A program made the translations under genes and the position numbers. From an uncultured Planctomycetales bacterium (GTDB lineage Bacteria > Omnitrophota > Gorgyraeia > Zapsychrales > JBDRMG01): a DNA stretch of 64,000 nt. Below the pieces are notes generated by a model. The model saw only the letters and a list, made by a program, of their open reading frames with translations. It made no database searches and was not told where the DNA came from. Location of the stretch: NCBI GenBank assembly GCA_964478715.1, contig CAYZIY010000001.1, positions 149,196-213,195 of the forward strand, in the 5' to 3' direction. Below, one piece after another: positions 10,559 through 64,000 of this stretch (positions are counted from its first letter, which is position 1; every line of letters starts with the position of its first letter).

Positions 10559-10580
10559 AATGATCGATGAGGGTTGCTAG

Positions 10581-10618
10581 CCCCCCCCGCACCAATTCAT
10601 TGGTGCGGGGGTTTTTTT
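10581..10618 (+). terminator. Rho-independent terminator after the pilin gene
   Basis: GC-rich stem cccccgcacca / tggtgcggggg with a 6-nt loop, followed by ttttttt. Confidence 0.75.
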
Positions 10619-10664
10619 GATCTTAATATTGTGAAAGATTGATTTTCTTATTAGAATAGAGACA

Positions 10665-14076: not shown

Positions 14077-14654
14077 GAGAATTGATCGATACACAAAAGA
14101 AAATAGGGATAAGCATAGCGGTGCTCGTTTTGGTTCTTTTATGCGCGTGGCTGTTTCTCTATCGACCCACAGCCAGTAAGCTTAAAGAACTGAAAACACG
14201 GTTTCATGATATTGAAGCGGCTATCCGTCAGATCGAATCGATCGCTTCGCGCGGAAAAGACTTAAAAGACAGCATAATGGATCTGGAGGAAACCCGCAGC
14301 CGGCTTAAGCAGAAGTTTCCGGCAAAAGAAGAGGAGAGCCTCAGGATTCTTTCGCAATTGGCGCGCGATAATGATATTGAGGTGATCCGTTTCAAGCCGC
14401 AGAGCAAGAAGCTGTTTAGATCCGCCGGAGACAGACAAGGGGATGCTGTCATTGAGGGCAAGACATGCCGTCAGCTGTCTGTGGTTTTGGAACTGCGTTC
14501 GACCTATCATGATCTGCTTCATTATATCGATGCGCTTAAAAGTTCCGGGGCGGCTTTTTTTGTGGTCCGAAAAATGGAATTGCGCAAAAACTATACGGAC
14601 AGCCGATTGCTGAGTGTCGGATGCACCATCGATTTTTATTACTTATCCTCATGA
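14073..14654 (+). CDS. PilO/GspM-like bitopic inner-membrane pilus assembly protein
   Basis: Short cytoplasmic N-terminus, one TM (ISIAVLVLVLLCAWLFL), coiled-coil then periplasmic domain; position after the PilM-N fusion. Confidence 0.6.
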   Translation: MRELIDTQKKIGISIAVLVLVLLCAWLFLYRPTASKLKELKTRFHDIEAAIRQIESIASRGKDLKDSIMDLEETRSRLKQKFPAKEEESLRILSQLARDNDIEVIRFKPQSKKLFRSAGDRQGDAVIEGKTCRQLSVVLELRSTYHDLLHYIDALKSSGAAFFVVRKMELRKNYTDSRLLSVGCTIDFYYLSS

Positions 14655-48306: not shown

Positions 48307-48335
48307 TTGCCAGCAAAGGGCCATTCATTTATAAT
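48307..48335 (+). promoter_or_regulatory. Near-consensus sigma70 promoter (TTGCCA-17-TATAAT) at the head of the signalling island
   Basis: ttgcca at 48307-48312, 17-nt spacer, tataat at 48330-48335. Confidence 0.45.
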
Positions 48336-48347: not shown

Positions 48348-48731
48348 TTGATCAACATCATTATGAGTCAGGACAAGCAGAAAATCCTAATTGTAGATGA
48401 CGAGCCCGGTATTGCCCGGGTGCTCGGTTGCCGGTTGGAAAGCTGGGGCTATGAAATATGCTCGGCTTTAAGCGGAAAAGAAGCGCTTGAGAAGGTTGAG
48501 GAAATAAAACCGGATCTGGTCTTGCTGGATGTGATCCTGGGAGATGCGCAAGGGTTTGATATTTGCCGGCGGATCCGCAACCAATGCGGTGACGGCTTAA
48601 AGATCATCATGTGTACGGCCAAGATCGACGGGGTGGACGCCAAAAAGGCCCGCGAAGCCGGTGCCGATCACTTCGCTCCCAAAACAGGGGAGATGAGCGA
48701 AATCAAGCGGGCTATTCAGAATCTTCTTTAG
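48348..48731 (+). CDS. Single-domain response regulator receiver
   Basis: VDDE acidic residues, phospho-acceptor in VLLDVIL, conserved T/K (MCTAK ... FAPK). Confidence 0.85.
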   Translation: MINIIMSQDKQKILIVDDEPGIARVLGCRLESWGYEICSALSGKEALEKVEEIKPDLVLLDVILGDAQGFDICRRIRNQCGDGLKIIMCTAKIDGVDAKKAREAGADHFAPKTGEMSEIKRAIQNLL

Positions 48732-48954
48732 AAATCATTTCTTAATATATTGATTCCAAAGTCACTTCCCTATCTTTACTATTGATCATGAAAAGTCAAT
48801 CATCTAAGATGATCAATAGAAGAAAGATTCCTTTTTAATACTAATATTATTACTTTCCGCTAATTTCTTGAATGGCCGATTCTCCGGGTATGCAAAAGAA
48901 TGCTCGCAGATGGCTCTCATGCTTTGGATTTCACGGATGGAAAGGACCCGGAGA

Positions 48955-50247
48955 ATGTCTGAGAGCAAAAACCATATGCAAAAAGAGCGCAGGAAAAGAA
49001 ATCTGTTTCTCGTACTTTTCGGATTGATATCGGCGAGTCTTATTTTCTGTGTCATGGTCTTTGGTCAGGAAATTCTGCCGGATTTACTTTGGGTGCATGA
49101 ACCTTTTCATTCGGCGGTAGAGGCCTTTGGTTCGTTTATTGCCCTTTTGATGGCCGTCATTCTTTTATCCCGCAGGCGACAAGAAGTATCCAGCAAGTAT
49201 CATTTTATCGCGCTTGGTTTTTTGGCCATGGGTATTTTGGACGGTTTTCACTCTTTGACCAATCCGGGCCAGTCGTTTGTCTTTTTACGCTCGCTGGCGA
49301 GTCTTTTGGGAGGAATATTCTTTATGTTCACCTGGTTTCCTCCCCGCAAGAAAATCAAAGGACCGCGACTTACCATTCCCCTGGCGGTCATCGTTGTCAC
49401 AGGCGGGATCTCTATCTTTAGCTTGCTGAATCCTGACCGTCTCCCCCTTATGGTCAATAGCAAAGGAGCATTCACTCCCTTGGCCGTTCAAATGAATTAT
49501 CTGGCGGGGGTCCTGTTTTGTTTAGCCGCTGTTCGTTTTCTGCTCGATTTCTATCAAGCGGGTAAGATGGATTTCTTTCTTCTGGCCGTTCTCTCGGCAT
49601 TATTCGGATTTGCCGAATTAACTTTTGAAACTTCGGCCATTTGGGATATGCAGTGGTGGCTCTGGCATTTGATGCGGCTTGCGGCGTATGGGATCGTTTT
49701 GTTTTTTGTCGGCATGGAGTTTCGTGAGAATATTAAATATGAGAAACGAGCACGGGAGGCGATTGCTCAGGCCAAGGCCTATTCCGATCTGCTGTTTCAG
49801 GTGGTTCCCAGCGCAATCTTTGCAGTCGACAGAAACCGTAACATCACGGCATGGAATAAAAAAGCCGAAGAAATCACAGGCTATTCAATCGAGGAAGTGA
49901 TAGGGAAAGAATGCGTCTTGTTTGCGGAGCAACCATGTAAGGAAAAATGCGGCCTGTTGGATCCCGATATGCAGAAGCCCATTATTGGCCGTGAATGCAC
50001 CATCAGGCACAAAGACGGCAGCACGCGGTTTATTTCCAAAAATGCCGATATTATTCTGGGCGAAAACGGGATTGTCTTGGGAGGTATTGAGAGTTTTGAG
50101 GATACAACAGGCAGAAAGCAGTTTGAAGAACAGCTGAAGAATCACGCTCAGGAGCTTGAGCGGATGAACAAAATGATGGTCGGCAGGGAATTGAGAATGG
50201 TTGAGCTAAAGAAAGAAATTAAAACATTAAAAGGAAGATTACCCTAA
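48955..50247 (+). CDS. Kinase-less membrane sensor: multi-TM N-terminal domain + PAS domain + C-terminal coiled-coil stub
   Basis: Six to seven TM helices, PAS (FAVDRNRNITAWNKKAEEITGYS...), ends in ..MVGRELRMVELKKEIKTLKGRLP without HisKA/HATPase. Start set at Met 48955. Confidence 0.7.
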   Translation: MSESKNHMQKERRKRNLFLVLFGLISASLIFCVMVFGQEILPDLLWVHEPFHSAVEAFGSFIALLMAVILLSRRRQEVSSKYHFIALGFLAMGILDGFHSLTNPGQSFVFLRSLASLLGGIFFMFTWFPPRKKIKGPRLTIPLAVIVVTGGISIFSLLNPDRLPLMVNSKGAFTPLAVQMNYLAGVLFCLAAVRFLLDFYQAGKMDFFLLAVLSALFGFAELTFETSAIWDMQWWLWHLMRLAAYGIVLFFVGMEFRENIKYEKRAREAIAQAKAYSDLLFQVVPSAIFAVDRNRNITAWNKKAEEITGYSIEEVIGKECVLFAEQPCKEKCGLLDPDMQKPIIGRECTIRHKDGSTRFISKNADIILGENGIVLGGIESFEDTTGRKQFEEQLKNHAQELERMNKMMVGRELRMVELKKEIKTLKGRLP

Positions 50248-50263
50248 GATCGCGCGGGTTGTT

Positions 50264-51973
50264 ATGACACTGAAAGTACGGCTTATCGCCAGTTATCTGT
50301 TAATCTTTTGCCTGGTCGCCATGGTCAGCGTTTTTTTGATCAGACATATTAATGCCAATGATCAGCGTCTTAATTTCATTAAGGAAGAAAACGATGAGCT
50401 GAAAAAGGCCATGCATCTTAATTTATTGTCGCAGCATATCAAATATTATGATGAGGTTCTGACCCAATCCGCCAGGAATTATGCCTTTACCCGGGATGCG
50501 AAGTGGAAAAACCGCTATGAAGCTATCGAGCCCCGTCTTGATGAGACGATTAAAGAGGCCGTTGATAAAGGCAATCATAAGGACAAACAAAGTTTTTCTC
50601 AGGTCGATGAGGCTAACTCGGCTTTAGTCAACATGGAACATCAGGCTATGCGTTTGGTTGACGCGGGGCAATCCGCGCAGGCGATTGCTCTGCTGGGGAG
50701 CGGGAGTTATTGGAATCAAAAGAAACTTTATGACGATGCTCTCAAAGAATATATCCGAAGGCAGGGGCTTCTCTACGATCAGGCCACCCGGGAAGCTGCT
50801 CTGGTTTATCAGGATACCATTGAAAAGATTCACCGTTCGGCACAAGAGGGCAAACAAAAGATATTCCTGAGTATTGTTATCATTGCGCTTGTCTTTATCT
50901 TTTTGATTGTTTTTAATATATCGTATATTTTCCGCCCCGTGGATTATCTGGTCGGTGTCATGGGAAATTTTCGCAGCGGTCATTTAGATGTCTCGATAGA
51001 TCCGAAGATTAAAAAATCGAAGGGCGAAATCGGTTTGTTGGCCCGGGTCTTTGACCAGATGGGCAGGGAGTTGAAAAATTCTTATGAACATCTGGAACAA
51101 AAGGTCAAATCCCGGACGCAAGAGCTCAACAAAAAAGTCAAAGAGATGGAAGATAAGAATGAAGAGCTGCAGAGCACCAAGAAAGCTGTTTTGAATATTC
51201 TGGAGGATCTCGAAGAATCCAAGAAAAGCATTGAGAAACAGAGGGATGATCTGGCGGTCCTAAAAAATGAATTAGAGCATTCCAACAAAGAGTTGGAACA
51301 GTTTGCCTATATCGCGTCGCATGACCTGCAAGAGCCCTTGAGAAAAATTGTGGCTTTCGGTGATCTTTTGCATGAAGGGATTGATCAAAAGCTTAACAGC
51401 GAACAGAGGAATTATCTTAAACGCATGCAAAATGCCGCCTATCGCATGAAACATTTGATCGAAGGTCTGTTGGATTATTCGCGCATCACCACTAAAATAA
51501 AGCCTTTTGAAAAAGTAGATTTGAACCAGAAAGTCCAGGAGGCCTTATCTAATCTTGAAATACGAATCAAAGAAACCGGAGCTCAGATAGATATCGGGGA
51601 ACTGCCCGCTATTATGGCCGATGAGCTTCAGATGGCGCAACTCTTTCAGAATCTGATAGGCAATGCTATTAAATTCCACAAAAAAGGGCAGCGCCCGGAG
51701 GTGAAGATTCGCAGTACTTTTCAAGATGGAATCCACAAGATTACCATTGAGGACAATGGCATCGGATTTGATAAAAAATATATGGATCGTGTTTTTGCGC
51801 CGTTTCAGAAACTGCATGCCCGTGACGAATATGAAGGCACCGGGATCGGTCTTTCGATTTGCCAGAAAATTGTTAAATGCCACAATGGAACGATGAAAGT
51901 TCAAAGCAGCCCGGATAATGGAGCTACGTTCATTATCTATCTTCCGATAGTACAAACCGAAAGGAGTTTATAA
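50264..51973 (+). CDS. Sensor histidine kinase (TM - helical sensor - HAMP - coiled coil - HisKA - HATPase_c)
   Basis: H-box FAYIASHDLQEPLRKI, N-box NLIGNAIKFH, G-boxes DNGIGFD / GTGIGLSIC. Confidence 0.85.
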   Translation: MTLKVRLIASYLLIFCLVAMVSVFLIRHINANDQRLNFIKEENDELKKAMHLNLLSQHIKYYDEVLTQSARNYAFTRDAKWKNRYEAIEPRLDETIKEAVDKGNHKDKQSFSQVDEANSALVNMEHQAMRLVDAGQSAQAIALLGSGSYWNQKKLYDDALKEYIRRQGLLYDQATREAALVYQDTIEKIHRSAQEGKQKIFLSIVIIALVFIFLIVFNISYIFRPVDYLVGVMGNFRSGHLDVSIDPKIKKSKGEIGLLARVFDQMGRELKNSYEHLEQKVKSRTQELNKKVKEMEDKNEELQSTKKAVLNILEDLEESKKSIEKQRDDLAVLKNELEHSNKELEQFAYIASHDLQEPLRKIVAFGDLLHEGIDQKLNSEQRNYLKRMQNAAYRMKHLIEGLLDYSRITTKIKPFEKVDLNQKVQEALSNLEIRIKETGAQIDIGELPAIMADELQMAQLFQNLIGNAIKFHKKGQRPEVKIRSTFQDGIHKITIEDNGIGFDKKYMDRVFAPFQKLHARDEYEGTGIGLSICQKIVKCHNGTMKVQSSPDNGATFIIYLPIVQTERSL

Positions 51974-52426
51974 ATGGAAGCCGAAAGAAAGCCGGTCGTT
52001 ATTTTGCTTGCTGACGACGACGATGATGATGCTCTATTAACGAAAAAGGCTTTAAAGGAATCAAGAGTCTGTAATAAGATGTATAGAGTGAAGAATGGTG
52101 AAGAATTGATGGATTTTCTGACGCACAACGGGCGCTATGAAGATAAAGAGAAAGCGCCGCCGCCGGCGCTTATTCTCCTTGATCTCAACATGCCAAAGAA
52201 AGATGGACGGGAGGCATTAAAAGAGATTAAGAACGATCCAAAGTTGCGCAGCATTCCGATTACGATCTTAACAACGTCAAAAGCCGAAGAAGACATAGTG
52301 CGTTCTTATGACTTGGGCGTCAATTCTTTTATTACCAAGCCGGTAGACCTCAAAGGTTTTTTCAATGTGGTCAAAGAGATCAGCAATTACTGGTTTGAGG
52401 TTGTAGAATTACCCCGACAGGACTAA
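51974..52426 (+). CDS. Single-domain response regulator receiver
   Basis: ADDDDDD acidic cluster, LILLDLNMPKKDG, TTSK, K in ITKP. Confidence 0.85.
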   Translation: MEAERKPVVILLADDDDDDALLTKKALKESRVCNKMYRVKNGEELMDFLTHNGRYEDKEKAPPPALILLDLNMPKKDGREALKEIKNDPKLRSIPITILTTSKAEEDIVRSYDLGVNSFITKPVDLKGFFNVVKEISNYWFEVVELPRQD

Positions 52427-52447
52427 AATAATAAGGAGTATTGGGAT

Positions 52448-52813
52448 ATGGGAAAAAGTATTCTTATCATAGACGATGACCGGGAAGATCAGGATCTGAT
52501 CAAAGTGGCTTTAGAAAAAGCCGGATTTAATCAAATTCACTGCTCTATATCGGGAGAGGAAGGGCTGAAAGATGCCTGGGAAACAAGACCCGATCTGATT
52601 ATTGTCGATACCCGTCTGACCGGAATGAGCGGTTTTGAAGTCTGCCAGAAGATCAAGGCCGAAAAAGAGATTTCGGCAAAAGTTATTATTATCACTGGTG
52701 CTGTCGATGCCGTTGACGCCGTCAAGGCCAGGGAAATGGGTGCGGATGATTATTGCGCCAAGACCAGTGATTACGCGCCTTTAGTGGAAACGGTGGAGAA
52801 ATGGCTTAACTGA
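52448..52813 (+). CDS. Single-domain response regulator receiver
   Basis: IDDDRED, LIIVDTRLTGMSG, IITGA, CAK. Confidence 0.85.
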   Translation: MGKSILIIDDDREDQDLIKVALEKAGFNQIHCSISGEEGLKDAWETRPDLIIVDTRLTGMSGFEVCQKIKAEKEISAKVIIITGAVDAVDAVKAREMGADDYCAKTSDYAPLVETVEKWLN

Positions 52814-52815
52814 CA

Positions 52816-55800
52816 ATGGCTGCCATTACAAAAAAGAATAATAGTTTAAAAGCCGCATACCCCCGCTATGTTCTCGTTCTTCTCTGCGGAGCGATTGTTC
52901 TGATTTTTAGCGTTTCCGGGTTGGTCATTACACAAAGTTTAAGAAGTCATGCGTTAAAAGAAATAGCGGATGAAAGCAAGGCGGCGATTGGGGCCTTAAG
53001 CACAGGTCTAATTCGGGAGTTAAGAGAAACACAAAAAGGAGCTCAAAATCTGGCCGGTTCTCCCTGGGTTCCTCCGGTGCTTATCAGGGGAAACCCTCAG
53101 GATATCAAAAGAGTCAACCGGGTTCTTGACCGCTATAACCGTTCTTTCGATGCGTCGGTTTGTTATTTATTGAATCAGCAGGGCATCACCGTTGCTTCTT
53201 CAAACCGCAATACGAGCGAAAGCTTTATCGGCAAAGACTACAGTTTTCGACCTTATTTCCAAAAGGCCATAGGGGGCAAAGCGGGAAGCTATTTTGCTCT
53301 GGGGATCACATCTAAAAAAAGAGGGCATTATGCCTCTTATCCCGTGATATCTGGCGATCAAAAGATTATCGGTGTTGTTGTGATTAAAGATGAGATAGAT
53401 TATTTCGCCGATGCTTTCAGGAAATTTAAGCATTGCTATCTGATTGATCCTAACGGCATCATTTTTCTGGGGAGCCGTTCCCATTTTGTGCTCAAATCAC
53501 TTTGGCCGGTTAGCCAAAAAGCCAGAGACGAACTGAAAAAGACACAGCAGTTCGGAGAAGGACCTTTTGAGCATTTATTGGACCAAGAATATAAAGACGG
53601 ACAAAAGGTGCAATTTCTCAACCAGACTTGGCTGGTCAATCGCAACTATATTAACGACCAGGGTTGGTCGGTGCTTATGTTGAGTTCAACCAAGGGGGCA
53701 AGACTCTATGGTCTTCTCGGGATTTTGACCACCGCTTTTATTATTATTCTGTTGATCGTATTTCTCGGGATTCTTTTCTACATGGATAAATCGCGCCAAA
53801 AAGTTCTGGAAAGTGAAGAAAAGTATCGCGAATTAGTCCAAAATGCCAATAGTATTATTCTGCGCTTAGACAGCGAAGGACGCATTGTTTTTATCAATGA
53901 ATATGCCCAAAACTTTTTTGGCTATATGGAATCCGAAATTTTTGGGAAATCTGTCGTGGGAACGATTGTCCCCGAGCAAGACAGCGAGGGGATCGATGTG
54001 GCTCAAGTGATTGAGAATCTTTTAAAAGACACAGAGCGTTACAAATATAATGAAAACGAGAATATCAAAAGAAACGGAGATCGTGTCTGGGTGGCCTGGA
54101 CCAACCGGGTCATCAAGAATGAGCCTGCCGGAAAAAACGAGATTCTTTGCGTCGGCACAGACATCACCCAAAACCGTCGGGCCTCTGAGCATATTCGCCG
54201 ATTATCGACAGCCGTTGAGCAATCGCCCAGTGTTATTGCCATAACGGATCTCAATGGAAATCTTGAATACGTCAATCCGAAATTTTGCGTGTCTACAGGC
54301 TATTCTCTAGAGGAAGCCAAGGGGCAGAATCCACGGATTCTTAAAAGCGGCGAACAGCCAAAAGAGGTGTATAAAGATATGTGGGAGAAAATCGCCAAAG
54401 GCGAAGAATGGAGAGGCGAGTTTCATAATAAGCGCAAAGACGGCAGTCTTTACTGGGAACTGGCCTCGATTTCTCCTATTCGCAATGCCCAGGGGGAAAT
54501 TACGCATTATCTCAAGGTGGCCGAGGACATCACCGAGCGAAAAAGGGCCGAACAGATGTTGGCCGAGACCAAAGAAGCTCTGGAGCAGCAGACTTGGGGA
54601 TTAAAGAAAACCAATGAAACACTCAAGCTCCTCTATAAAGAGCTCGAGGAGAAGAATGCCGAATTAAAAAAACTTGATCGGCTTAAAAGTGATTTTGTCT
54701 CAACCGTCTCGCATGAGCTGCGCACTCCTCTGGCGATTACGACCGAAGGCATCAGCCTGGTGATCGATCAAATTGCAGGCCCTATTAACGACAAGCAAAG
54801 GAATCTCCTTCACACATCCAAAGAAAATTTGGTGCGTCTAAACAAAATCATCAATGATCTTCTGGATATTTCGAAAATTGAATCTGGACGCCTGGAGCTC
54901 GGTAAAAGCATAACAGATATATCAAGAATTATTCAAAAAACGGTAAATTCTTATCAAACGGTAGCCGACCCAAAAAAGATCACAATCCGGACACATTTTC
55001 CCGAAGAGCGCATTATTCTTTTTATCGATCAAGACAAAATTATCCAGGCGCTCAATAATTTGATTTACAATGCGATTAAGTTTACCAAAGAGCAGGGCGT
55101 CATTGATATAACGCTTGCTTCTCAAGAGACCGAAGTTGTTATCAGTATCAAAGATAATGGAGTCGGTATTTCGCATGAAGATATGAAAAAACTCTTCAGC
55201 AAATTCCAGCAGTTTGGACGCACCCACGGTCCCGGCGCCAAGGGAACGGGTTTGGGTCTTTCGATCACCAAGGCGTTGGTCGAACTGCACGGGGGGCGAA
55301 TTTGGGCTGAAAGTGCGCTGGGCGAGGGAACGACGTTTTCATTTACTCTGCCGAATTACAAGAAAGTGATCGGTGAATTCGAGGAAAATCTATCTGATGA
55401 TATCGAGGAAGCTCAGCAGAGTAAAAAGGATATGACGCTTCTTCTGATGGATGTCGTCAATTATCAAAAGATTGTCGATCGCTTTGATGAATATGTTTTA
55501 GCTGATACGATGAATAAAATATTTTCAATCATTGAGCAGATCGTATCCCGGCCCAAAGACAGAGCCCTTATCATCGATCAACATACGATTTATATCTCTT
55601 TGCCGCAGACCAGCAAAAGCGGAGGCAATGCGGTGATCCGGCGGATCAGGGAGGAGATCAACGCGCAGTCTTTTATGGTGGAGAAAGAAGATGTATCTGT
55701 TTATATGCGATTTAGTATGGCTGTGGCCCCTGCGCAGGGCACAGACAGAGAAACGTTGATTCAACATGCCAGGAAGAAATTATTGCAGCCGCGAACGGTT

Positions 55801-56148
55801 TTGGTGGTTGACGATCATCCGCAGATTGTCCGCATTTTGCAGATGCGGCTGGAGAATAAAGGATATCAGACGGTTCCCGCTTATAATGGGAAAGAGGCTC
55901 TCAATGAAATCGAAAAGAGAAAACCGGATTTAATTATTCTCGATATTATGATGCCGGAGATGAACGGTTATGAAGTTTACGGACGGCTGAAGGAAGATCC
56001 CGAGACATCAGACATTCCGGTTGTTATGCTTTCGGCTCACGATGTGGATATGGGCAAAATTGAGACATTCGGCCCCAAGGCCGTGCCGGTCATTCAGAAG
56101 ACGGGCGGTTTTGAAAATTTGGTATCGAAGCTGGAAGAGCTTGTTTAG
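52816..56148 (+). CDS. Hybrid sensor histidine kinase: TM - Cache-like periplasmic domain - TM - 2x PAS - coiled coil - HisKA - HATPase_c - degenerate GGDEF-like module - receiver
   Basis: H-box FVSTVSHELRTPL, N-box NLIYNAIKFT, G-box GTGLGLSIT, C-terminal REC (VLVVDDHPQ ... LILDIMMPEMNG). Confidence 0.85.
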   Translation: MAAITKKNNSLKAAYPRYVLVLLCGAIVLIFSVSGLVITQSLRSHALKEIADESKAAIGALSTGLIRELRETQKGAQNLAGSPWVPPVLIRGNPQDIKRVNRVLDRYNRSFDASVCYLLNQQGITVASSNRNTSESFIGKDYSFRPYFQKAIGGKAGSYFALGITSKKRGHYASYPVISGDQKIIGVVVIKDEIDYFADAFRKFKHCYLIDPNGIIFLGSRSHFVLKSLWPVSQKARDELKKTQQFGEGPFEHLLDQEYKDGQKVQFLNQTWLVNRNYINDQGWSVLMLSSTKGARLYGLLGILTTAFIIILLIVFLGILFYMDKSRQKVLESEEKYRELVQNANSIILRLDSEGRIVFINEYAQNFFGYMESEIFGKSVVGTIVPEQDSEGIDVAQVIENLLKDTERYKYNENENIKRNGDRVWVAWTNRVIKNEPAGKNEILCVGTDITQNRRASEHIRRLSTAVEQSPSVIAITDLNGNLEYVNPKFCVSTGYSLEEAKGQNPRILKSGEQPKEVYKDMWEKIAKGEEWRGEFHNKRKDGSLYWELASISPIRNAQGEITHYLKVAEDITERKRAEQMLAETKEALEQQTWGLKKTNETLKLLYKELEEKNAELKKLDRLKSDFVSTVSHELRTPLAITTEGISLVIDQIAGPINDKQRNLLHTSKENLVRLNKIINDLLDISKIESGRLELGKSITDISRIIQKTVNSYQTVADPKKITIRTHFPEERIILFIDQDKIIQALNNLIYNAIKFTKEQGVIDITLASQETEVVISIKDNGVGISHEDMKKLFSKFQQFGRTHGPGAKGTGLGLSITKALVELHGGRIWAESALGEGTTFSFTLPNYKKVIGEFEENLSDDIEEAQQSKKDMTLLLMDVVNYQKIVDRFDEYVLADTMNKIFSIIEQIVSRPKDRALIIDQHTIYISLPQTSKSGGNAVIRRIREEINAQSFMVEKEDVSVYMRFSMAVAPAQGTDRETLIQHARKKLLQPRTVLVVDDHPQIVRILQMRLENKGYQTVPAYNGKEALNEIEKRKPDLIILDIMMPEMNGYEVYGRLKEDPETSDIPVVMLSAHDVDMGKIETFGPKAVPVIQKTGGFENLVSKLEELV

Positions 56149-56237
56149 TGAGACTATAATAGGAGTTGTTGACGCAGATTATACGATGCATTAACTTTAA
56201 GGAAGTTTTCTGCCTATCAGAAAAAGAGGAGCCCATC

Positions 56238-56627
56238 ATGAAAGCCAGAGACATTATGACCAAGGATATCATCACTTTAACTCCCGAGACCACAATTGCC
56301 GAGGCCATTGATAAAATCATCAACAATAAAATCAGCGGAGCGCCGGTTTTAGACGCCCAGGGAGAGATTGCGGGTGTCGTTACCGAGAAAGATCTGTTGG
56401 TGGCCTATGATTTTATCAAGAAATTCGGTGAGGCCATCAAGGAATTTATGAGCCGCGATATTATCGGCATCAGTGAGGAGACACCGGTTGAGGAGATCAG
56501 CCAGCTTCTGGTTCAGCGCAATATCAAGCGGGTTCCCGTTCTGGAAGGCAAAAAGGTTTTAGGTATCGTCAGCCGGCGGGATGTGCTCAGATATATTCTT
56601 GAAAAGGAAAAACCGATAAATGCTTAA
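56238..56627 (+). CDS. CBS-domain pair protein
   Basis: Two CBS motifs (ARDIMTKDIITL...GAPVLD / SRDIIGISEETP...RVPVLE); start set at Met 56238 with RBS agagga. Confidence 0.8.
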   Translation: MKARDIMTKDIITLTPETTIAEAIDKIINNKISGAPVLDAQGEIAGVVTEKDLLVAYDFIKKFGEAIKEFMSRDIIGISEETPVEEISQLLVQRNIKRVPVLEGKKVLGIVSRRDVLRYILEKEKPINA

Positions 56628-57417
56628 AAAAATTCTGATTGTCGAAGATGAGAAGCAGATGCAGCAAATGGTCTCCATGCGCTTAAAGGCCGCCGGATAT
56701 GAGGTAATCACCGCCGATGACGGCAGGCAGGCCATGGAGCAGGTGGTCCAGTATGTTCCAGATCTTGTGATCACCGATGTCCTGATGCCGGTGATGGACG
56801 GTTTTTCCCTTTATAAGGAATTAAAAAAAGGAGCGGCTACCAAAGATATCCCAGTTTTGATTTTAACGGCTCGCGGGCAGATGGAAGATACATTCAAAGT
56901 GGTGGGGGCCGATGATTTTATCGCCAAACCTTTTGAGGCCGAAGAACTTTTATCCAAAGTGGAAGAGCTGACTCAGGTTTCACGTAAAACTAGCGTTGCT
57001 CCTGAAACCCAAAAGAAAGTCCTGATCGCCGGCAATCACAAGGATATGATCAATAAAATTATTTTGCTATTAAAGAAAGAAAATCAGGAGACAGTTTTTG
57101 CCTTCGATGGATCAGATGCTGTTCAGAAGGTCATCAAATTTAATCCTGATATCATCGTTTTAGACGTTCTTCTTGATAGTATTCCCACGGAAGAAGCAAT
57201 CAAGATTATCCGCAAAATGACCCAGTATGAAAAAACGCCGATTATTGTTTACAATTTTTATAAAACCGAAGACTTGGGGAGCACTTCGGTGCGCGAAAAA
57301 ATTCTCTTGATCGATTCGGCCCAGGAAGCCTGCAAGGAAGCCGGCATTACCGAAGATATCGGCCGGATTAATGAATATACCTTTATCGAGAAAATGAAAA
57401 AATATTTTTCCAAATAA
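56620..57417 (+). CDS. Tandem-receiver protein (canonical REC + degenerate second REC)
   Basis: First domain has the VEDE pocket and VITDVLMP phospho-acceptor; second retains IVLDVLL but lacks the N-terminal acidic pair. Confidence 0.8.
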   Translation: MLKKILIVEDEKQMQQMVSMRLKAAGYEVITADDGRQAMEQVVQYVPDLVITDVLMPVMDGFSLYKELKKGAATKDIPVLILTARGQMEDTFKVVGADDFIAKPFEAEELLSKVEELTQVSRKTSVAPETQKKVLIAGNHKDMINKIILLLKKENQETVFAFDGSDAVQKVIKFNPDIIVLDVLLDSIPTEEAIKIIRKMTQYEKTPIIVYNFYKTEDLGSTSVREKILLIDSAQEACKEAGITEDIGRINEYTFIEKMKKYFSK

Positions 57418-57427
57418 GAGGTGAATC

Positions 57428-57796
57428 ATGAAAAAAAAGAAAATTCTTGTCATTGATGACGAAAAAGAGATGACCGATATGATTGCCATGCGGCTGAAAT
57501 ATTACGGTTATGCTTGCCTGACGGTTAACGATCCCCAGGATGGAGCGGCGCTGGCCCAAAAAGAAAAACCTGCTGCGATTCTTCTGGATGTGCTGATGCC
57601 GCAGATGAACGGCCGGCAGGTTTGTAAACAGCTTAAAGACAATGAGGTTACGCGAGAGATTCCTATCGTTTTTTTAACGGCTAAAGACAGCGCTGACGAT
57701 GTGACAGCCGAAATGCAAGCCGGAGGGGTAGGGCATATTACCAAGCCGATCAATGATGCCGAATTGATTGATGTGATCAGATCGCTGATTGGATAG
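57428..57796 (+). CDS. Single-domain response regulator receiver
   Basis: IDDEKE, ILLDVLMPQMNG, FLTAK, ITKP. Confidence 0.85.
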   Translation: MKKKKILVIDDEKEMTDMIAMRLKYYGYACLTVNDPQDGAALAQKEKPAAILLDVLMPQMNGRQVCKQLKDNEVTREIPIVFLTAKDSADDVTAEMQAGGVGHITKPINDAELIDVIRSLIG

Positions 57797-57807
57797 GGCT
57801 GGTCTGC

Positions 57808-58086
57808 ATGAAGAAACTGGATGAGATTATGAAAATAGCCGATCAGCAAGAGAGGCAAAGGGAATTGGTGGCTTATGCTCGGTCATTAAATATATCGACC
57901 GGAAAATTCAAAAACGAGCAAGGACAGATTAACGAAGAGAAATTAGCTATTCTGCTTTATGATCATGAACAAGGACAGAAAAGCAGCCGGAATCAAAACA
58001 TCGGCTTTCTCTTTGTCGGTATTTTCTTGGCCCTTATCACTTTCGTCCTGTTTTTCTTATTCTGGAAATCAATCGTTCACCTGTAG
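57808..58086 (+). CDS. Small C-tail-anchored membrane protein, unknown function
   Basis: Hydrophilic N-terminus, single C-terminal TM (IGFLFVGIFLALITFVLFFLFW). Confidence 0.35.
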   Translation: MKKLDEIMKIADQQERQRELVAYARSLNISTGKFKNEQGQINEEKLAILLYDHEQGQKSSRNQNIGFLFVGIFLALITFVLFFLFWKSIVHL

Positions 58087-58091
58087 AAATA

Positions 58092-58517
58092 ATGAAATAT
58101 AAAATTCTTATAGTGGATAACGAAGCTGATTTTGCTGAGATGCTCAAAGCCAGGCTGGTCGCATCGGGATATGATGTGATCATCGCCACGGACGGCCAAC
58201 GGGCTCTTAGAAAGAAAAGAAAGGAAAAGCCCGATCTTTTGATTCTGGACTTGATGATGCCTGAGCTAAATGGCTATGGCGTGTGCCGCGAAATTCGCAG
58301 AAAAGACAATGATCAAAAAACACCTATTATTATGCTGACCGGGAAGGATAAGGATGCCGATCGAATCCAGGGCAAGGTTATCGGGGCGGATATTTATTTG
58401 ACCAAGCCCTGCGACAGCGATGTTTTGCTTAAAAAAATCGATCAGTTGTTAAAGAATATCCAAAACGAAAATACTGAGGGCCGTCATGGAAAAAAAGAAA
58501 ATTCTGATAATCGATGA
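58092..58517 (+). CDS. Single-domain response regulator receiver
   Basis: VDNEAD, LILDLMMPELNG, MLTGK, LTKP. Confidence 0.85.
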   Translation: MKYKILIVDNEADFAEMLKARLVASGYDVIIATDGQRALRKKRKEKPDLLILDLMMPELNGYGVCREIRRKDNDQKTPIIMLTGKDKDADRIQGKVIGADIYLTKPCDSDVLLKKIDQLLKNIQNENTEGRHGKKENSDNR

Positions 58518-58854
58518 CGAAGAGGATATGCGGGCCTTTGTGGGTATGCGTCTTCAGGCTGCCGGATATGAAATCCTGACCGCCATCGATGGCATGGACG
58601 GACTGAATATGGCCCGCGCCCATCATCCCAATTTGATTATCCTGGATGTGATGATGCCTAAAATGGACGGTTTTCAGGTTTGCCGGATGCTTAAATTCGA
58701 TGAGATCTTTCAAGATATTCCTGTGATTATGTTAACCGCCAAATCACAGCCCGATGATAAGAAAATCGGTCAGGATGTCAAGGCCGATGCCTATATAACC
58801 AAACCCTTTGAGGGGGAAGTCCTTATTCGAAAAGTGAAAGAGTTTCTTAACTAA
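58486..58854 (+). CDS. Single-domain response regulator receiver (paralog of 6721-7104)
   Basis: IDDEED, IILDVMMPKMDGFQVCRMLKFDE, MLTAK, ITKPF. Confidence 0.85.
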   Translation: MEKKKILIIDDEEDMRAFVGMRLQAAGYEILTAIDGMDGLNMARAHHPNLIILDVMMPKMDGFQVCRMLKFDEIFQDIPVIMLTAKSQPDDKKIGQDVKADAYITKPFEGEVLIRKVKEFLN

Positions 58855-58903
58855 AAAATTTAATTTGTCTTGGTGAAAAAAAGTTTAAGGCAACAAAAGG
58901 TTA

Positions 58904-60952
58904 TTGATGAGTAAAACCAACATTCTTATTGTGGGAGCCGGTCAGGGCGGCCAAGCTCTTTTGCGATTGCTTTCCCAGAGCAATGAACTTTATATCGTTG
59001 GTGTTGTGGATGTAAACGAAAAAGCTCCGGGAATCATCTTGGCGAAAGAGTTACGCATTTCCACCGGCAGGGATTTCAGGGAATTCCTTAAAAGAAACGA
59101 TCTGCATCAAATCATCAATGTCACCGGAAGCCGGGACGTTGAAAAAGAGATTCGGAAATTTGCATCCTGGGAGACCGAAATCATCAGCGGTCACAGCGCG
59201 AAGCTGATGTGGCATTTGATCGAAGAAAGAAAGAAAATGGAGGAGGAGATCAGAGAGAGCCAAAAACGCTGGGATGCGATCTTTCGTTCGATTTTGACTG
59301 CTGTGGTTATCATTGATATGCAGAAGCGCCAAATTGTGGATTGCAATCCGCTGGCCGAGAAAATGATCGGTCTGCCTAAAAAAGACATTGTTGGTCAGGT
59401 GTGCCATCAATTTATTTGTCCTTCAGAAGCGGGCTGCTGTCCGGTGATCGACTTGCGAGAGATCGTTGACAAATCGGAGAAAATTCTCCTGAACGCCCGC
59501 CAGGAAGAAATTCCCATTCTCAAGACGGTTTGCCGGGTCAATATTAAAGGACGCGATTATCTCATAGACAGTTTTATTGACATCAAAGAGCAAAAGAAAT
59601 TGAGTCAAAAAATTCAGGAGAACGAGGAGCGTTTGCGATCCTGGATTCAGAATATTCCCGGCGCGGTTTATCGCTGTGCCAATGATCCCGGATGGACCAT
59701 GGAATTCTTAAGCGATGAGATTGAGCGGCTCTCGGGCTATCCGGCCGATGATTTCATTAATAACAAGGTGCGCAGTTATGCCAGCATCATCCATCCCGAA
59801 GACCGCGAAATGGTCGATCATGTAATTCAGGAAGCCGTTCAATGTAAATGGCCTTATGATCTAAAATACAGAATTATTGATACCAGGGGCCAGATTAAGT
59901 GGGTTTACGAAAAAGGCCAGGCTCTTTTTAACGAAAAAGGTGATTGTCAATGGCTTGACGGGGGCATTTTTGATATTACCGACCAGAAAAAAGCGGAAAT
60001 AGCGCTCAGATCCAGCGAAGAAAGATTCAGGGTAATTTTTGAATCTTCCAAAGACGCATGCGTTTTGCAGAAACCCGACGGAACAATCATTGACTGCAAC
60101 GAAGCGGCTGTCTCGATGTACGCTTGCCAAGACAAAGAAGAGCTTAAACGACAAAATTCCGCCATTTTGTCAGCCGGCATCCAGTATGACGGGACGCCGA
60201 GTTCACAAAAAATTTCTAGCGTTTTTAGAGAAATTCAAGACAAAGGATCTTGTTTTATTTCATGGAGAGCCCGTCGCTTGAACGGAAAGGAGTTTGACGC
60301 GACCGTTCTTTTCAGTTTATTGGAGATCGACGGAGAGAAGATTTATCATGCTGCCGTGAGGGATGTAACTGAAGAGAAAGAGGCCCTTAAGAAAATCGAG
60401 GAGAACGAACAAAGATTTCGTCTGCTGAACGAGAATGTTTCCGATGTGATTTGGCGGATGAACAGCGATATGACTTTTCGTTATTTTAGCCCTTCCGTTA
60501 AAAAGATTTACGGGTATACTCCGGAAGAGGCCTGCCGTTTGCGGCTTCGTGATTTCTTTGATCCCCAGGGTTTTAAAGAGATAGTCCAAGTGATTGATCA
60601 GGAAACACGCAGGGCCCGCGAGAGTGCGGATTTCAAGTATTCCCGAACTCTCCAGTTAAGAAACAAAAAGAAAGACGGTTCGATGATTTGGGTAGAAATT
60701 AACGCGAATTTTCTTAAGGATCGGCAGGGGAACATTACGGGTCTTTTGGGTGTGACCCGTGATATCACAAAACGGAGAGAGCGCGAGGAAAAAATGAAGG
60801 CAGTCATGAAAGATCTCCAGATGTTTAAAAATGCGGCTATCGACCGGGAGTTGAAAATGATTGAGTTAAAAAAAGAGATCAACCGCCTCTGCGGGGAATC
60901 CGGCAGGCCGCCGCCTTATGATCTTTCTTTTCTTAATGATCCATTAAAATAA
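58904..60952 (+). CDS. Kinase-less cytoplasmic sensor: N-terminal Rossmann-like GxGxxG domain + multiple PAS domains + C-terminal coiled-coil stub
   Basis: ILIVGAGQGGQALL...VGVVD dinucleotide-binding-like start; at least three PAS/PAC units; ends in ..DRELKMIELKKEINRLCGE with no output domain. Confidence 0.75.
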   Translation: MMSKTNILIVGAGQGGQALLRLLSQSNELYIVGVVDVNEKAPGIILAKELRISTGRDFREFLKRNDLHQIINVTGSRDVEKEIRKFASWETEIISGHSAKLMWHLIEERKKMEEEIRESQKRWDAIFRSILTAVVIIDMQKRQIVDCNPLAEKMIGLPKKDIVGQVCHQFICPSEAGCCPVIDLREIVDKSEKILLNARQEEIPILKTVCRVNIKGRDYLIDSFIDIKEQKKLSQKIQENEERLRSWIQNIPGAVYRCANDPGWTMEFLSDEIERLSGYPADDFINNKVRSYASIIHPEDREMVDHVIQEAVQCKWPYDLKYRIIDTRGQIKWVYEKGQALFNEKGDCQWLDGGIFDITDQKKAEIALRSSEERFRVIFESSKDACVLQKPDGTIIDCNEAAVSMYACQDKEELKRQNSAILSAGIQYDGTPSSQKISSVFREIQDKGSCFISWRARRLNGKEFDATVLFSLLEIDGEKIYHAAVRDVTEEKEALKKIEENEQRFRLLNENVSDVIWRMNSDMTFRYFSPSVKKIYGYTPEEACRLRLRDFFDPQGFKEIVQVIDQETRRARESADFKYSRTLQLRNKKKDGSMIWVEINANFLKDRQGNITGLLGVTRDITKRREREEKMKAVMKDLQMFKNAAIDRELKMIELKKEINRLCGESGRPPPYDLSFLNDPLK

Positions 60953-60968: not shown

Positions 60969-61937
60969 ATGCTGTCGTTAAAAGAAAAATTGCGGGGAGC
61001 CGTTTTGGCCTGCTTGATCGGTTTTGTCGGTGTGGGGATCCGGTCGTTTTCTCAAAATCCCGTTTTTGATCCTTTGTTTGTTTCACTTCTTCTGGGCATC
61101 GTATCCACAGTTTTTATCAAAAGAGGGGGCTTCCGCAGAGAATTGCCCGTTATCTGGAATCTGTTTATTCCTGCGGGCATCATCTTATATGGAGCCGTGA
61201 ATCTTGATTTTCATTCTTTCTATCATGTGCGGACCGGTTCCATTTTTCTGATTTCTATCGTCATGCTTGTTTATTTACTTACGGTCTTATCTCTCTGTAG
61301 TCTTTTCAGGTTGAGCGAAAAGACCAGTTATTTGATTGCTTCAGGTTCGACTATTTGCGGCGCTTCAGCAATAGCGATTACATCCAGGTCGATTGAGGCC
61401 GAGCCCGATGAAATTTCCATGAGTCTTGTTGCCGTTTTTTTGGCCGCTCTTTGCGGTTTATTTGTTGTCTTGCCTTTAGCGCGTTCCGCTTTCAGCATGA
61501 GCGAATATGATTATGCGACCTTTGCCGGCTCAACCGTGCAGTTTACAGGATTTGTCAAAACGGCCGTAGCTAACCTTCAATCTGATTCCAGAAGTACCGC
61601 CATGTCTTTTAAGACTATGCGTTACGTCGGACTCCTTTTCATTATTCCATTATTTACAAGTCTAACCAGGGGGCGTGTCAGCATTCCTTGGTATCTGGGG
61701 GCTTTTCTGGGGGCGGGAATTATCTTTAGCATTTTCCATGAACAAGCAGAAGCGATTAAACCGTTTCTCAAACAGATGTTGTCCCTCCTGTGGTCTATCG
61801 CGATGGCTGCCGTGGGCATGAGCGCTGACCTGAAACAGATTCTGACATGGCAGGGGGTCAAGGCCTTTGCCGCGAGCTTGCTGTCTTTTTTGATAGCGGG
61901 CGGAATTTTCATCTTAGGCCACCAACTTCTAAAATAG
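60969..61937 (+). CDS. Polytopic inner-membrane protein (YeiH/UPF0324-like), function unknown
   Basis: About 9-10 predicted TM helices across 322 aa; family assignment by overall topology only. Confidence 0.4.
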   Translation: MLSLKEKLRGAVLACLIGFVGVGIRSFSQNPVFDPLFVSLLLGIVSTVFIKRGGFRRELPVIWNLFIPAGIILYGAVNLDFHSFYHVRTGSIFLISIVMLVYLLTVLSLCSLFRLSEKTSYLIASGSTICGASAIAITSRSIEAEPDEISMSLVAVFLAALCGLFVVLPLARSAFSMSEYDYATFAGSTVQFTGFVKTAVANLQSDSRSTAMSFKTMRYVGLLFIIPLFTSLTRGRVSIPWYLGAFLGAGIIFSIFHEQAEAIKPFLKQMLSLLWSIAMAAVGMSADLKQILTWQGVKAFAASLLSFLIAGGIFILGHQLLK

Positions 61938-61953
61938 AGAAATATGAAAATCG

Positions 61954-64000
61954 CCACCAAATTTGTACTGATTATTTTGATCATTGCCTTGATGGTTCTA
62001 TCTTTGGGATTTTATTCGGCTCGAATCACCCGTCATGCTTTCAGGGAAATCATTGCTCAAAAATCAACAAACCTTGCCAAGGGATTGCTCAGAGACATCG
62101 ATCACTTAATTGAAATGAGATTTGAAGAATTGCAGATTCATTTGAGTTCAATCAGCTTCAAAAATGCCATGATGGAAGCGAATAACGAATTTAATTTGAT
62201 GGACGATGCCGAGAGAGAGATTCAGGCCAGGGAGCGTAGGTGGGTGTCTTCTTCCGTTGATCATTCATTAAAAGAGAAACTTTTACAGACACCTGAATCC
62301 GAAGAGCTAAAGAAGGTTGTTGAAGACTATCAGCAAAAGTACGGGTATCCCGTTTTTGGGGAGATCTTTCTGACCAATAGATATGGCACTCTTATTGCTT
62401 TTTCTGGAGAAACAAGCGACTATTATCAGGCCGATGAATCCTGGTGGCAGGAAGCCAAAAAGCAGGGTTTTTCGATCGAAGATATTCATTATGATGAAAG
62501 CAGCGGTATTTATGGTCTTGCAATTTCCGTCGCTCTCTTTGATGAGGGAGAAAATTTTATCGGGGTGGTTAAATCGATATTGAATTTTGAGGAGATTGCT
62601 TTCGCATTGAGGGAGGCGGAGCAGTTATCCAGTTCTCAATCAACCGTTTTAAAACTTCTTACGCGAAATGATAAACTCATCTATTCGACGGAAGATTTTC
62701 GATTTTTAGAAGACTATTCTGCCGGGCTTAATCAGCTGAGCAGTCTTTGGTCCGAAAACGGGTCCGGAGACTTTCTGATCGTTGAGGACGAAAGCCTCAA
62801 TAATGTCCGGCTCATTGTGCGGGCGCAGCCGGAGAATTCAGAGATAGCAGATCAGCTGGGCTGGACTTTGATTGTGGAATATGATGCTCAAGAAGTTTTT
62901 GCTTCCCTTAATAAGCTGGAAAAGCATTTATTTATGGCCACTTTGATGATTATGGTAGTTGCGGTTTTCCTTGGATTATTGATTTCACAATCCGTCTCAC
63001 GTCCCTTGTTAACTTTAAATAAAGCGGCAGAAGAATTCGGTCAAGGCCGGTTCGATTGCCCTGTTTGCGTGAAAGCCGGCGGGGAAGTGCGTCTTCTGGC
63101 TGATACCTTTAATACGATGACCCAAAGGATCAAGGAGAGCGCGATCTCACTGGAGCGCTTGAACCAAGAAATCAAATCACGAAAAAAGGCAGAGAATGAT
63201 CTCAAAAATCTTAATCAAGACTTGCAAATAAATGAGGCAGCGCTTAAGAATATGCTTTATGATCTCAATAGAGCTCATAATGAGCTTAAGGAAGTGCAGA
63301 ATCAGTTGCTTCAGTCTGAGAAAATGGCCGCCGTCGGCCATCTCTCGGCAGGTGTGGCGCATGAAATCAAGAATCCGCTTTCGGTGATTCTCTTAAGCGC
63401 GGAGTCTCTGGAGGCAAAAACGAGAAAGATGGATCCGTCTTTGGTCAAACGGGTTTCCATGATCAAAGAATCAGCCCAGAGAGCCAATAGGGTCATTGTG
63501 GATTTGCTGAATTTTTCCCGCTTCAGCAATATGCAAATGCAGCCGGTGCGGCTTAGCCAACCATTAAGCAAGGCCATTGAGTTTTCTCTTCAAGCCGCCA
63601 AACTCAAAGGCATCGAGATCAAGTCTAAAGAGGCCGATCCGGGTTTGTCGGTAGAGGGCGATCAGGTATTATTACAGCATATCTTTTTAAATATCATCAC
63701 CAATGCCATCGATGTCTTGGATAAGAATGGAAAGATCTGGGTGAATGTTGAGAAAGCAGGCGATTCGGATAAAAATGATCAGGTTTACATCCGCATCAAA
63801 GACAGCGGTCCCGGCATTCCCAAAGGTATTGTCAATCAAATATTTGAGCCTTTTTTTACGACCAAAGAGCAAGGCAAAGGCACCGGGCTGGGACTCAGCA
63901 TTGTTTATATGCTTGTTGAGAAACACAAAGGGGCTATTACCGTTGAAAGCGAGGAGGGTCAGGGTACGGAATTTATTATTTCCTTACCTTTAATAAAAAA
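61954..64000 (+). CDS. Sensor histidine kinase, 3'-truncated by the window end (TM - Cache-like sensor - TM - HAMP - coiled coil - HisKA - HATPase_c)
   Basis: Manual translation from the ATG at 61954 stays open to base 64000 (absent from the ORF track because there is no stop). H-box AAVGHLSAGVAHEIKNPL, N-box IITNAIDV, G-boxes DSGPGIP / GTGLGLSIV. Confidence 0.8.

Follow-up and report, generated by a model that had tools for sequence, protein, structure and literature searches.

A stretch of 64,000 nucleotides (nt) from an uncultured bacterium, deposited as Planctomycetales and placed by GTDB in the Omnitrophota (GCA_964478715.1, contig CAYZIY010000001.1, positions 149,196 to 213,195), was analyzed in full length and is called the window here. 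From 48.3 kb to its end it carries a dense array of two-component system (TCS) genes, among them many receiver (REC) genes without an output domain. We read this array as a composite two-component locus of Candidatus Omnitrophota, in which four or more cassettes lie side by side that each recur alone in other genomes, and we give this reading a probability of about 60%. It is based on directly observed features, namely domain content, catalytic and acceptor residues, and the conservation and synteny of the cassettes. All seven receiver genes of the array and the REC of its hybrid kinase keep a full acceptor set, so a phosphotransfer network with many receivers is a reasonable reading, and a multi-branch network in which some adjacent cassettes may cross-talk is plausible from the gene content.

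Genes are named here by the position at which they start. Cassette A would comprise the receiver REC 48363, a MASE3-PAS sensor with a conserved C-terminal tail, the HAMP kinase 50264 and the Rcp1-type REC 51974. Cassette B, the conserved core, would hold a second receiver of the type with Lys-Thr in place of the usual Lys-Pro (K-T), a dCache-PAS hybrid kinase with a dead GGDEF domain and a REC, a CBS protein and a REC-pseudoREC tandem protein, which in relatives is followed by a membrane-anchored mini-protein. Three extra paralogous stand-alone receivers (57428, 58092, and 58486) would form cassette C. Cassette D would consist of a Rossmann-PAS4 sensor, which is soluble and shares the tail of the sensor in A, together with a membrane protein and a further dCache-HAMP kinase.

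All genes listed in a preliminary description of this region, made from the letters alone, exist with the domains assigned to them, as the list of open reading frames (ORFs) and the Pfam scans demonstrate. Between 48.3 and 58.9 kb, Pfam identifies seven output-less receiver genes, six single and one tandem, which are accompanied by two histidine kinases of the membrane, one of them a hybrid, and by the kinase-less MASE3-PAS sensor, a CBS-pair protein and a tail-anchored protein of 92 amino acids (aa). The preliminary description had counted eight stand-alone receivers and three kinases; seven of the receivers are real, one of them tandem, while the eighth is the C-terminus of the hybrid kinase, and two kinases lie inside the interval, with further ones outside it at 61944 and 4815–6728. 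Its two kinase-less PAS sensors (48868–50247 and 58904–60952) and its ninth single-domain receiver (6721–7104) were recovered by Pfam as described. The array extends past 58.9 kb, since a kinase-less Rossmann-PAS sensor, a PF03601 membrane protein and another kinase follow just downstream. All array genes, and also REC 6721, the promoter match and the inverted repeat given below, are on the + strand, and the intergenic gaps measure -32 to +21 nt for most genes between 50247 and 58854. In a census of TCS loci, runs of four accounted for only 1.7% of the TCS genes (PMC3018481), which places the density of this array at the extreme tail, and the clustering is far beyond chance. The density was thus rightly called unusual. 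Related Omnitrophota loci are likewise rich in receivers; in locus L003, seven genes within 20 kb contain a REC.

The receivers are real and intact, and they do lack outputs. The REC domains of the seven genes and of the hybrid kinase score 64–119 bits against a Pfam cut-off of 30.2 (PF00072). In an alignment of nine REC domains, the DD acid pocket, the acceptor Asp, the Thr/Ser and the Lys are kept in eight; the exception is the second domain of 56620–57417, which has GN for DD, N for T and R for K. The stand-alone receivers are 121–150 aa long and the tandem protein 265 aa, and none of these polypeptides includes an output domain. Two other sequencing runs yielded contigs that match the window over 53087–59920 without gaps at 100% (6293 bp) and 99.96% (4704 bp) identity, so the gene structure between 53 and 60 kb is not a frameshift artefact. 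From 48 to 53 kb, no output-domain remnants were found in other frames of the ORF list. The short gaps leave no space for lost output domains, and receiver orthologues of the same length are present in other genomes. Frame errors and decayed fragments, which the preliminary description had named as possible refutations, were thereby checked, and its statement that no receiver carries an output domain holds.

Concerning the individual receivers, the first (48363–48731) is of the K-T type and has all the expected residues (DD, D, T, and K; Pfam E-value = 4.6e-25). Its ORF opens at a TTG at 48348, with the ATG at 48363 as the likely start. REC 51974 (51974–52426, 150 aa; Pfam) matches over residues 5–148, that is in full length, the Rcp1/RcpA/RcpB-type structures in the PDB (5te9, E-value = 1.3e-37; 1i3c, 9.6e-36; 1k68, 1.1e-32). 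It begins directly behind the stop codon of kinase 50264 (gap of 0 nt), and by its gene order and type it is apparently the partner in a classic pair of kinase and single-domain receiver. REC 52448 (52448–52813), again K-T, lies upstream of the hybrid kinase; in L088 and L004, orthologues with 50–53% identity to it immediately precede the homologous kinase gene. The K-T form thus occurs in three receivers, namely 48363, 52448 and the REC of the hybrid kinase. REC 57428 (57428–57796; Pfam E-value = 2.7e-24), REC 58092 (58092–58517, 141 aa; 9.4e-28), which has a D-N-E acid pocket, and REC 58486 (58486–58854; Pfam) complete the set. The last two genes overlap by 32 nt, where a 20-residue C-terminal extension of the first spans the start of the second.

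The closest relative of RECs 58486 and 58092 is REC 6721 of the type IV pilus operon (52 and 48% identity, respectively), with 58486 being its closest paralogue. REC 58486, REC 57428 and the N-terminal tandem REC share 36–48% mutual identity, and an α1 pattern M..M/I..MRL..GY is common to the tandem N-terminal REC, 57428, 58486 and the hybrid REC. The Rcp1-type and K-T receivers are only 19–34% identical to the other receivers, and each has its own adjacent kinase. The preliminary description had seen PilH/PilG- and DivK-type regulators in the terminal KP motifs. This assignment is unsupported, because KP is the universal Lys-Pro of REC domains; moreover, three of the receivers have K-T, and no receiver reaches any curated NCBIfam equivalog cut-off, including those of the DivK-like, EpsW and CheY models. 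For the DivK-like model NF045717 (DVU0259; cut-off 160) the best scores are 100.9 (tandem), 74.5 (58486) and 63.8 (57428), and the haloarchaeal CheY model NF041367, the only CheY model among the best 25 matches listed, scored 49.7 against a cut-off of 200. The PDB and NCBIfam matches include no curated PilG/PilH model and no solved PilG/PilH structure. In the PDB, the receivers tested resemble the OmpR class; PleD and RR468 are further matches for the tandem N-terminal REC and REC 58486.

When the translations were read directly, all four kinases showed the H-box, N-box and G-boxes. Kinase 50264 (50264–51973) consists of a transmembrane (TM) helix, a periplasmic domain of ~160 aa, a second TM helix, HAMP, a coiled coil, HisKA and HATPase; Pfam finds in it HAMP, HisKA and HATPase only, with no PHY, GAF or bilin-binding domain. 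The hybrid kinase (52816–56148, 1110 aa) has the order TM, dCache, TM, PAS, PAS, HisKA, HATPase, degenerate GGDEF and REC (Pfam and TM scan). Its GGDEF signature reads DQHTI, and the orthologues have NPQNI and SFDKV; the motif being lost, this domain is not a cyclase. An RPKD is present at the I-site position, five residues upstream of DQHTI, where L003 has RPND and L088 has -DGD. The stand-alone CBS-pair protein (56238–56627, ORF from 56166; Pfam E-value = 4.4e-34) overlaps the tandem gene by 8 nt. In L003, a hybrid kinase orthologue 50% identical over 793 aa and a CBS protein 68% identical are found in the same order, so that the succession of hybrid kinase, CBS, tandem REC and mini-protein recurs there. 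The pair of a K-T REC and a HisKA-HATPase-degenerate GGDEF-REC kinase recurs in L088, and in L004 with a kinase that has no GGDEF-REC part; in both loci the kinase is of the REC-HisKA-HATPase type. The CBS protein (E-value = 5e-20) and the N-terminus of 58904 (58904–59650; E-value = 8e-6) also match overlapping N-terminal parts of the NCBIfam PrdR model, and these two proteins may have sensor modules in common with the sigma-54 activator PrdR class.

The tandem protein (56620–57417) belongs to a family of ~75 full-length homologues with 34–50% identity, and all the named ones come from metagenome-assembled genomes of Candidatus Omnitrophota/Omnitrophica. It had been described as carrying two receivers in tandem, and there are indeed two REC folds, although the second is a pseudo-receiver. 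Its N-terminal half is a canonical REC, in which D10, D53, T83 and K103-P104 are invariant in the family alignment. The C-terminal domain is a conserved pseudo-receiver, in which the position of the 'acceptor' Asp is variable across the family, and it carries a conserved insertion of its own (DLGS..VR.K…ID) as well as a GRFNE-like motif. As these motifs of its own are conserved across 39 sequences, the pseudo-receiver is under selection. The AlphaFold2 model displays two (βα)5 domains (pLDDT, the predicted local distance difference test, of 92). The top fold match over both domains is the REC-REC' stem of PleD (1w25, E-value = 2e-16), and PleD is also a top sequence match. On the NCBIfam PleD model the protein scores 105.7 against a cut-off of 474, and no GGDEF is present.

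Nine homologous tandem-REC loci were compared (L003, L004, L005, L086, L087, L088, L089, L170, and L171). In all six close loci (L003, L004, L086, L087, L088, and L170), a gene for 92–112 aa is located directly 3' of the tandem gene. Five of its products (all but that of L170) are 27–36% identical to the mini-protein of the window (57808–58086, 92 aa; TM at aa 62–92 by TM scan) and share its C-terminal TM helix; the product in L170, which was not aligned, has the same size of 92 aa. The window differs from these six loci in that an extra receiver, REC 57428, sits between the tandem and the mini-protein gene, a position at which the six have none. The mini-protein has no Pfam or NCBIfam match, and its profile search, whose alignment also held two unrelated proteins of 211–215 aa, found seven proteins. 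The pair is kept with or without nearby kinases. In L086, L087 and L170 no kinase is located nearby; their neighbours are a PilT-like ATPase and a PilZ protein, joined in two of these loci by a PAS-GGDEF(-EAL) protein.

Synteny among L086, L087 and L170 (~1400–14500) runs from the PilT-like ATPase through a cytidine/dCMP deaminase, PilZ, PAS-GGDEF/EAL (not in all), a protein of ~530 aa and, in some, one of ~180 aa to REC-pseudoREC, the mini-protein, MscS (again not in all), dnaX and recR. The ~530-aa and ~180-aa proteins have no Pfam match. In L171, a 42%-identical relative, the tandem gene is followed by a protein of 115 aa that consists only of a HisKA, i.e., dimerization and histidine phosphotransfer (DHp), domain (10956–11303), and then by a REC; the 115-aa protein may serve in phosphotransfer on its own. 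On two unrelated Omnitrophota contigs (L086:14174–20816 and L088:8628–15121), the region a few kb downstream of the pair encodes a serine recombinase and has phage-like genes (terminase GpA, primase/D5, ParB-methylase, and SNF2 helicase), which suggests an integration hot spot near it.

Both kinase-less sensors end in a conserved helical tail of ~55 aa with the consensus RK.AEE.L…ELERFN..VGRELKMIELKKEIN.L….G….Y. The first (48868–50247) is a membrane protein with a six-TM MASE3 domain and a PAS domain (Pfam, TM scan, and tail motif), and its tail (about 50113–50244) is a truncated form ending in KGRLP. The second (58904–60952) is soluble, with a weak Rossmann-like N-domain, four PAS domains and the full tail (about 60773–60949). 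The ends of the two sensors read …ELERMNKMMVGRELRMVELKKEIKTL… or …DLQMFKNAAIDRELKMIELKKEINRL..GRPPPYDLSF. A six-sequence profile was run with HMMER against 1.84 billion cluster representatives (50% identity) and gave 39,276 matches at E ≤ 1e-3 and 9,050 at E ≤ 1e-10, counts which may be inflated because the profile also takes in the end of the PAS domain. A word-index search with the 65-aa tail had returned four matches, in comparison with this full scan. The core motif occurs in 99 of the 148 top matches retrieved and in 93 of these 99 ends no more than 40 aa from the C-terminus (median 23), while histidine kinase signatures are found in 2/148. Positions F18, N19, M29, N37, L39, G44 and Y49 are conserved at 84–96%, which exceeds what a generic coiled coil would show. 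Pfam recognized in ten tail proteins only PAS, or REC, PocR or CHASE, leaving the tail uncovered; NCBIfam and PDB profile searches gave no match to it, and a literature search with the motif string returned nothing relevant. In the source databases the proteins are named 'PAS domain S-box-containing protein'. It was also considered that the tail might be a DHp helix with its His replaced (SHELRTPL against GRELKMIEL); this was rejected, as an hhalign comparison of 97 tails with 50 DHp regions yielded a probability of 4.7% and the PDB profile search gave no match.

The neighbourhoods of the tail genes were studied in 80 metagenome loci (L090–L169) with 95 tail ORFs, using home-made hidden Markov models for REC, histidine kinase and tail. 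None of the 95 ORFs contains a kinase domain and 17 have an N-terminal REC. Among the REC-less tail genes, a same-strand kinase gene is located directly downstream in 15/51 and directly upstream in 1/51. For the genes of the REC-…-tail type, a stand-alone REC gene comes directly before in 11/14. The window agrees with the order of tail and kinase, as only 16 nt separate 48868 from kinase 50264 downstream of it, and 58904 is one gene upstream of kinase 61944, with the polytopic PF03601 (Cons_hypoth698; Pfam) membrane protein (60969–61937) between them. Kinase 61944 (61944–64000, running to the window end) has the order TM, dCache-like, TM, HAMP, HisKA and HATPase, and its periplasmic region gives a weak match to a sensor-domain model of the PDC type found in methyl-accepting chemotaxis proteins (MCPs). 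In L089 (11529–12839), an Omnitrophota tail protein with only a HAMP domain overlaps the start of a MASE1-CHASE kinase. A split sensor-kinase, in which the downstream kinases would have no sensor of their own, was rejected, most of them having 2–7 TM segments and long N-termini. With membrane sensors present in most of these kinases, the tail proteins look like co-sensors and not like the only sensor.

A motif LN(I/L)(L/M)ED, ~50 residues before the DHp domain, was present in 12 of 54 kinases in the tail loci, against 1 of 89 kinases from 80 unrelated REC loci gathered by generic REC peptide patterns (p = 3e-5). Kinase 50264 has it as AVLNILEDLEE (aa 310–320; 51191–51223) in its coiled coil, and the form (A)(A/V/I)LN(I/L)(L/M)ED is also found in kinases of L095, L101, L125, L142, L144 and L166. 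The motif could be a docking site for the tail, or a taxonomic artefact. We propose, only tentatively, that two novelties go together: that the tail is an unrecognized and very widespread output or docking module, the mark of a class of kinase-less PAS/HAMP/REC sensors that would steer a neighbouring membrane histidine kinase in trans, possibly via the LN(I/L)(L/M)ED helix, and that REC-pseudoREC with its mini-protein is a new output by membrane recruitment. We consider this joint proposal possible but less likely than not.

Taken as a composite locus, the array might operate as follows. The kinases would autophosphorylate in response to extracytoplasmic ligands (dCache) and to cytoplasmic cues, sensed by PAS domains, by CBS domains (adenylates) and by the Rossmann-like domain (NAD(P)), and each would phosphorylate the receiver or receivers adjacent to it. 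The receivers would act by protein-protein contact and by competition for phosphate and not by DNA binding. The paralogous receivers near the hybrid kinase (the tandem N-terminal REC, 57428, 58486, and perhaps 58092) may share it, leading to branching and competition. Once phosphorylated, REC-pseudoREC could exert its effect at the membrane by way of the tail-anchored protein, the CBS protein would contribute an adenylate input, and the tail-bearing sensors might tune neighbouring kinases in trans. The phosphorylation pairs, the roles of mini-protein and tail and the cellular output are what we infer here from the sequences. Our best guess for the output is type IV pili or surface behaviour linked to cyclic di-GMP (c-di-GMP), as suggested by the genes that surround the tandem REC in L003, L005, L086, L087, L088 and L170 (REC-EAL, PilZ, PilT-like ATPase, GGDEF-EAL, and HD-GYP-type), by the paralogy of RECs 58486 and 58092 to REC 6721 of the pilus operon and by the dead GGDEF with RPKD in the hybrid kinase.

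Several points weigh against this scheme. All partner assignments rest on gene order, and the neighbourhood link to c-di-GMP and pili was made without a statistical control. The more distant relatives L005, L089 and L171 have a different gene after the tandem REC. The adjacency of tail and kinase concerns only ~30% of the tail genes; within the tail loci the LN(I/L)(L/M)ED motif is found in 6/16 adjacent and 6/38 other kinases, a difference without significance (p = 0.15), and its enrichment over the control may reflect taxonomic confounding. RxxD is present in only two of the three hybrid kinase orthologues. Finally, the hybrid kinase carries a C-terminal REC, yet no Hpt domain is visible in the 64 kb.

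The preliminary description had suggested a branched phosphorelay or a phosphate-sink network, and the same genes can be read as a single integrated system of this kind, in which two or three kinases feed all the receivers and some receivers only drain phosphate. The tight spacing (-32 to +21 nt over 50247–58854) fits this, the α1 pattern shared by the paralogous receivers is compatible with a shared kinase, the hybrid kinase stands without a visible Hpt, and there are precedents for output-less dual and single receivers together (PMC2755868; PMC5964349); such a network would resemble Sinorhizobium CheY1 or Myxococcus RedCDEF. A classical His-Asp-His-Asp relay is not supported, as no Hpt (PF01627) was detected in any ORF scanned across the window. 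The unitary view also conflicts with the finding that the parts recur separately in other genomes, the tandem REC and mini-protein even kinase-free in L086, L087 and L170, that the Rcp1-type and K-T receivers share only 19–34% identity with the others and lie beside kinases of their own, and that a hairpin and T-run are found just behind the first gene. We therefore regard it as doubtful. Unlikely, too, is a PilG/PilH-like or c-di-GMP-linked controller of the pilus machinery at 4.8–31 kb, whose receivers would bind pilus motor or assembly proteins. It could explain why RECs 58486 (52%) and 58092 (48%) resemble REC 6721, which lies between a PAS-HK-PilZ (HK, histidine kinase) gene and a PilB-MshEN gene, why the tandem REC and mini-protein stand beside a PilT-like ATPase and PilZ in L086, L087 and L170, the dead GGDEF with RPKD in the hybrid kinase, and the REC-EAL gene in L003. 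However, 17 kb of unrelated genes intervene, no receiver matches a curated PilG/PilH/CheY-type model (NCBIfam), the best PDB matches are OmpR-class, PleD and RR468, and no Chp/CheA-type kinase is present.

A chemosensory-like adaptation system without CheA and CheW, also suggested earlier, is highly improbable: nothing recalls one apart from the large number of CheY-sized proteins and the weak MCP-like PDC match of kinase 61944, whereas CheA, CheW, the MCP signalling domain, CheR, CheB, CheZ and CheX are all absent from the ORFs scanned in the window and the CheY models stay below their cut-offs. The notion that the receivers are frameshift artefacts, or what is left of multi-domain regulators after decay, is hardly credible at all. 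Its only hints are the unusual 32-nt overlap between genes 58092 and 58486 and the degeneration seen in the second tandem domain, against which stand two independent indel-free assemblies, short gaps, orthologues of the same length, intact acceptors and a pseudo-receiver conserved in 39 sequences. The composite locus of separable cassettes is thus the reading that we retain.

Regarding expression, a sigma-70-like promoter match (TTGCCA-17-TATAAT, 11/12) is located at 48307–48335 and is the best match in 45–62.5 kb, while the total of promoter-like matches in the region is not above that of shuffles. Co-expression of the whole array from it, as had been supposed, is not assured. A perfect 11-nt inverted repeat with a T-run (CTATTGATCAT-N19-ATGATCAATAG, then CCTTTTTAA; 48779–48819; hairpin of -16.1 kcal/mol, z = -2.5) follows the first receiver gene, ahead of the MASE3-PAS gene. 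This repeat is a possible attenuator or terminator, or an operator. The co-directional arrangement, on which the same supposition drew, is true but not specific to the island, because nearly the whole 64 kb is on the + strand. Apart from 3702–4604, every plausible gene of the window is on that strand, the GC skew is positive almost throughout and the cumulative skew rises, consistent with one replichore with a strong leading-strand gene bias.

The first 31 kb of the window are a large cluster resembling type IV pilus and type II secretion systems, with, over 7101–31451, PilB-MshEN at 7101–8795 and 22833, PilC at 8834 and 20604, PilM/N/O, a secretin and pseudopilins. A DUF2341/PA14 protein of 1714 aa (24656–29800) lies in a stretch of higher GC (0.51 against about 0.45). 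The cluster also includes a gene for a PAS-HisKA-HATPase-PilZ kinase (4815–6728), which overlaps REC 6721; this receiver gene in turn overlaps the PilB-MshEN gene, whose MshEN domain is of a c-di-GMP-binding type. Between the pilus cluster and the island, ~17 kb of unrelated genes encode Fur, Fe-S/ParA-like proteins, methyltransferases, a hydrolase and others.

The Omnitrophota are uncultured and often ultra-small, and their behaviour is known only from genomes. A literature search combining their name with 'response regulator' found no study of these systems. The locus shows that members of this group invest in dense, output-less two-component circuitry. The REC-pseudoREC protein and its tail-anchored mini-protein are a conserved, lineage-specific pair that is directly testable. 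Output-less PAS proteins are usually dismissed as unexplained, and the tail shared by thousands of them, often upstream of a kinase gene, gives a testable handle on them. These two, the Omnitrophota pair and the widespread unannotated tail on kinase-less sensors, are worth follow-up; the island is otherwise ordinary, if extreme, two-component gene clustering and not a new type of system.

Among known systems, the tandem protein is closest to PleD of Caulobacter (REC-REC'-GGDEF), as both join a canonical REC to a pseudo-receiver without an acid pocket; unlike PleD, it has no GGDEF, possesses its own insertion and GRFNE motif, and has the tail-anchored mini-protein as its partner. FrzZ of Myxococcus is likewise an output-less dual receiver. 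In the 'four-component' RedCDEF system of Myxococcus, output-less dual and single receivers are encoded with more than one kinase-type protein at one locus (PMC2755868); the likeness is one of architecture only, since in the island the second tandem receiver is non-phosphorylatable, receivers and sensors are more numerous and there is no kinase-like phosphatase. REC 51974 is similar to the receivers of the Cph1-Rcp1/RcpA/RcpB systems over its full length, including the C-terminal dimerization extension (E-values from 1e-31 to 1e-37), and directly follows its presumed kinase, but that kinase is of the TM-HAMP type and not a phytochrome. SgmT of Myxococcus is a hybrid kinase with a c-di-GMP-binding degenerate GGDEF (PMC3509222). 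Kinase 52816 resembles it in its dead GGDEF with RxxD, a candidate c-di-GMP site, at the I-site position, and differs from it in that the GGDEF is placed between HATPase and REC, with no DigR-like DNA-binding partner nearby. Single-domain receivers such as DivK, MrrA, CheY1, EpsW and PilH serve as hubs or sinks through protein contact or phosphate drain (PMC5964349, PMC4671073); the receivers of the island share their output-less form, though all of them score below the curated models of DivK, EpsW and CheY.

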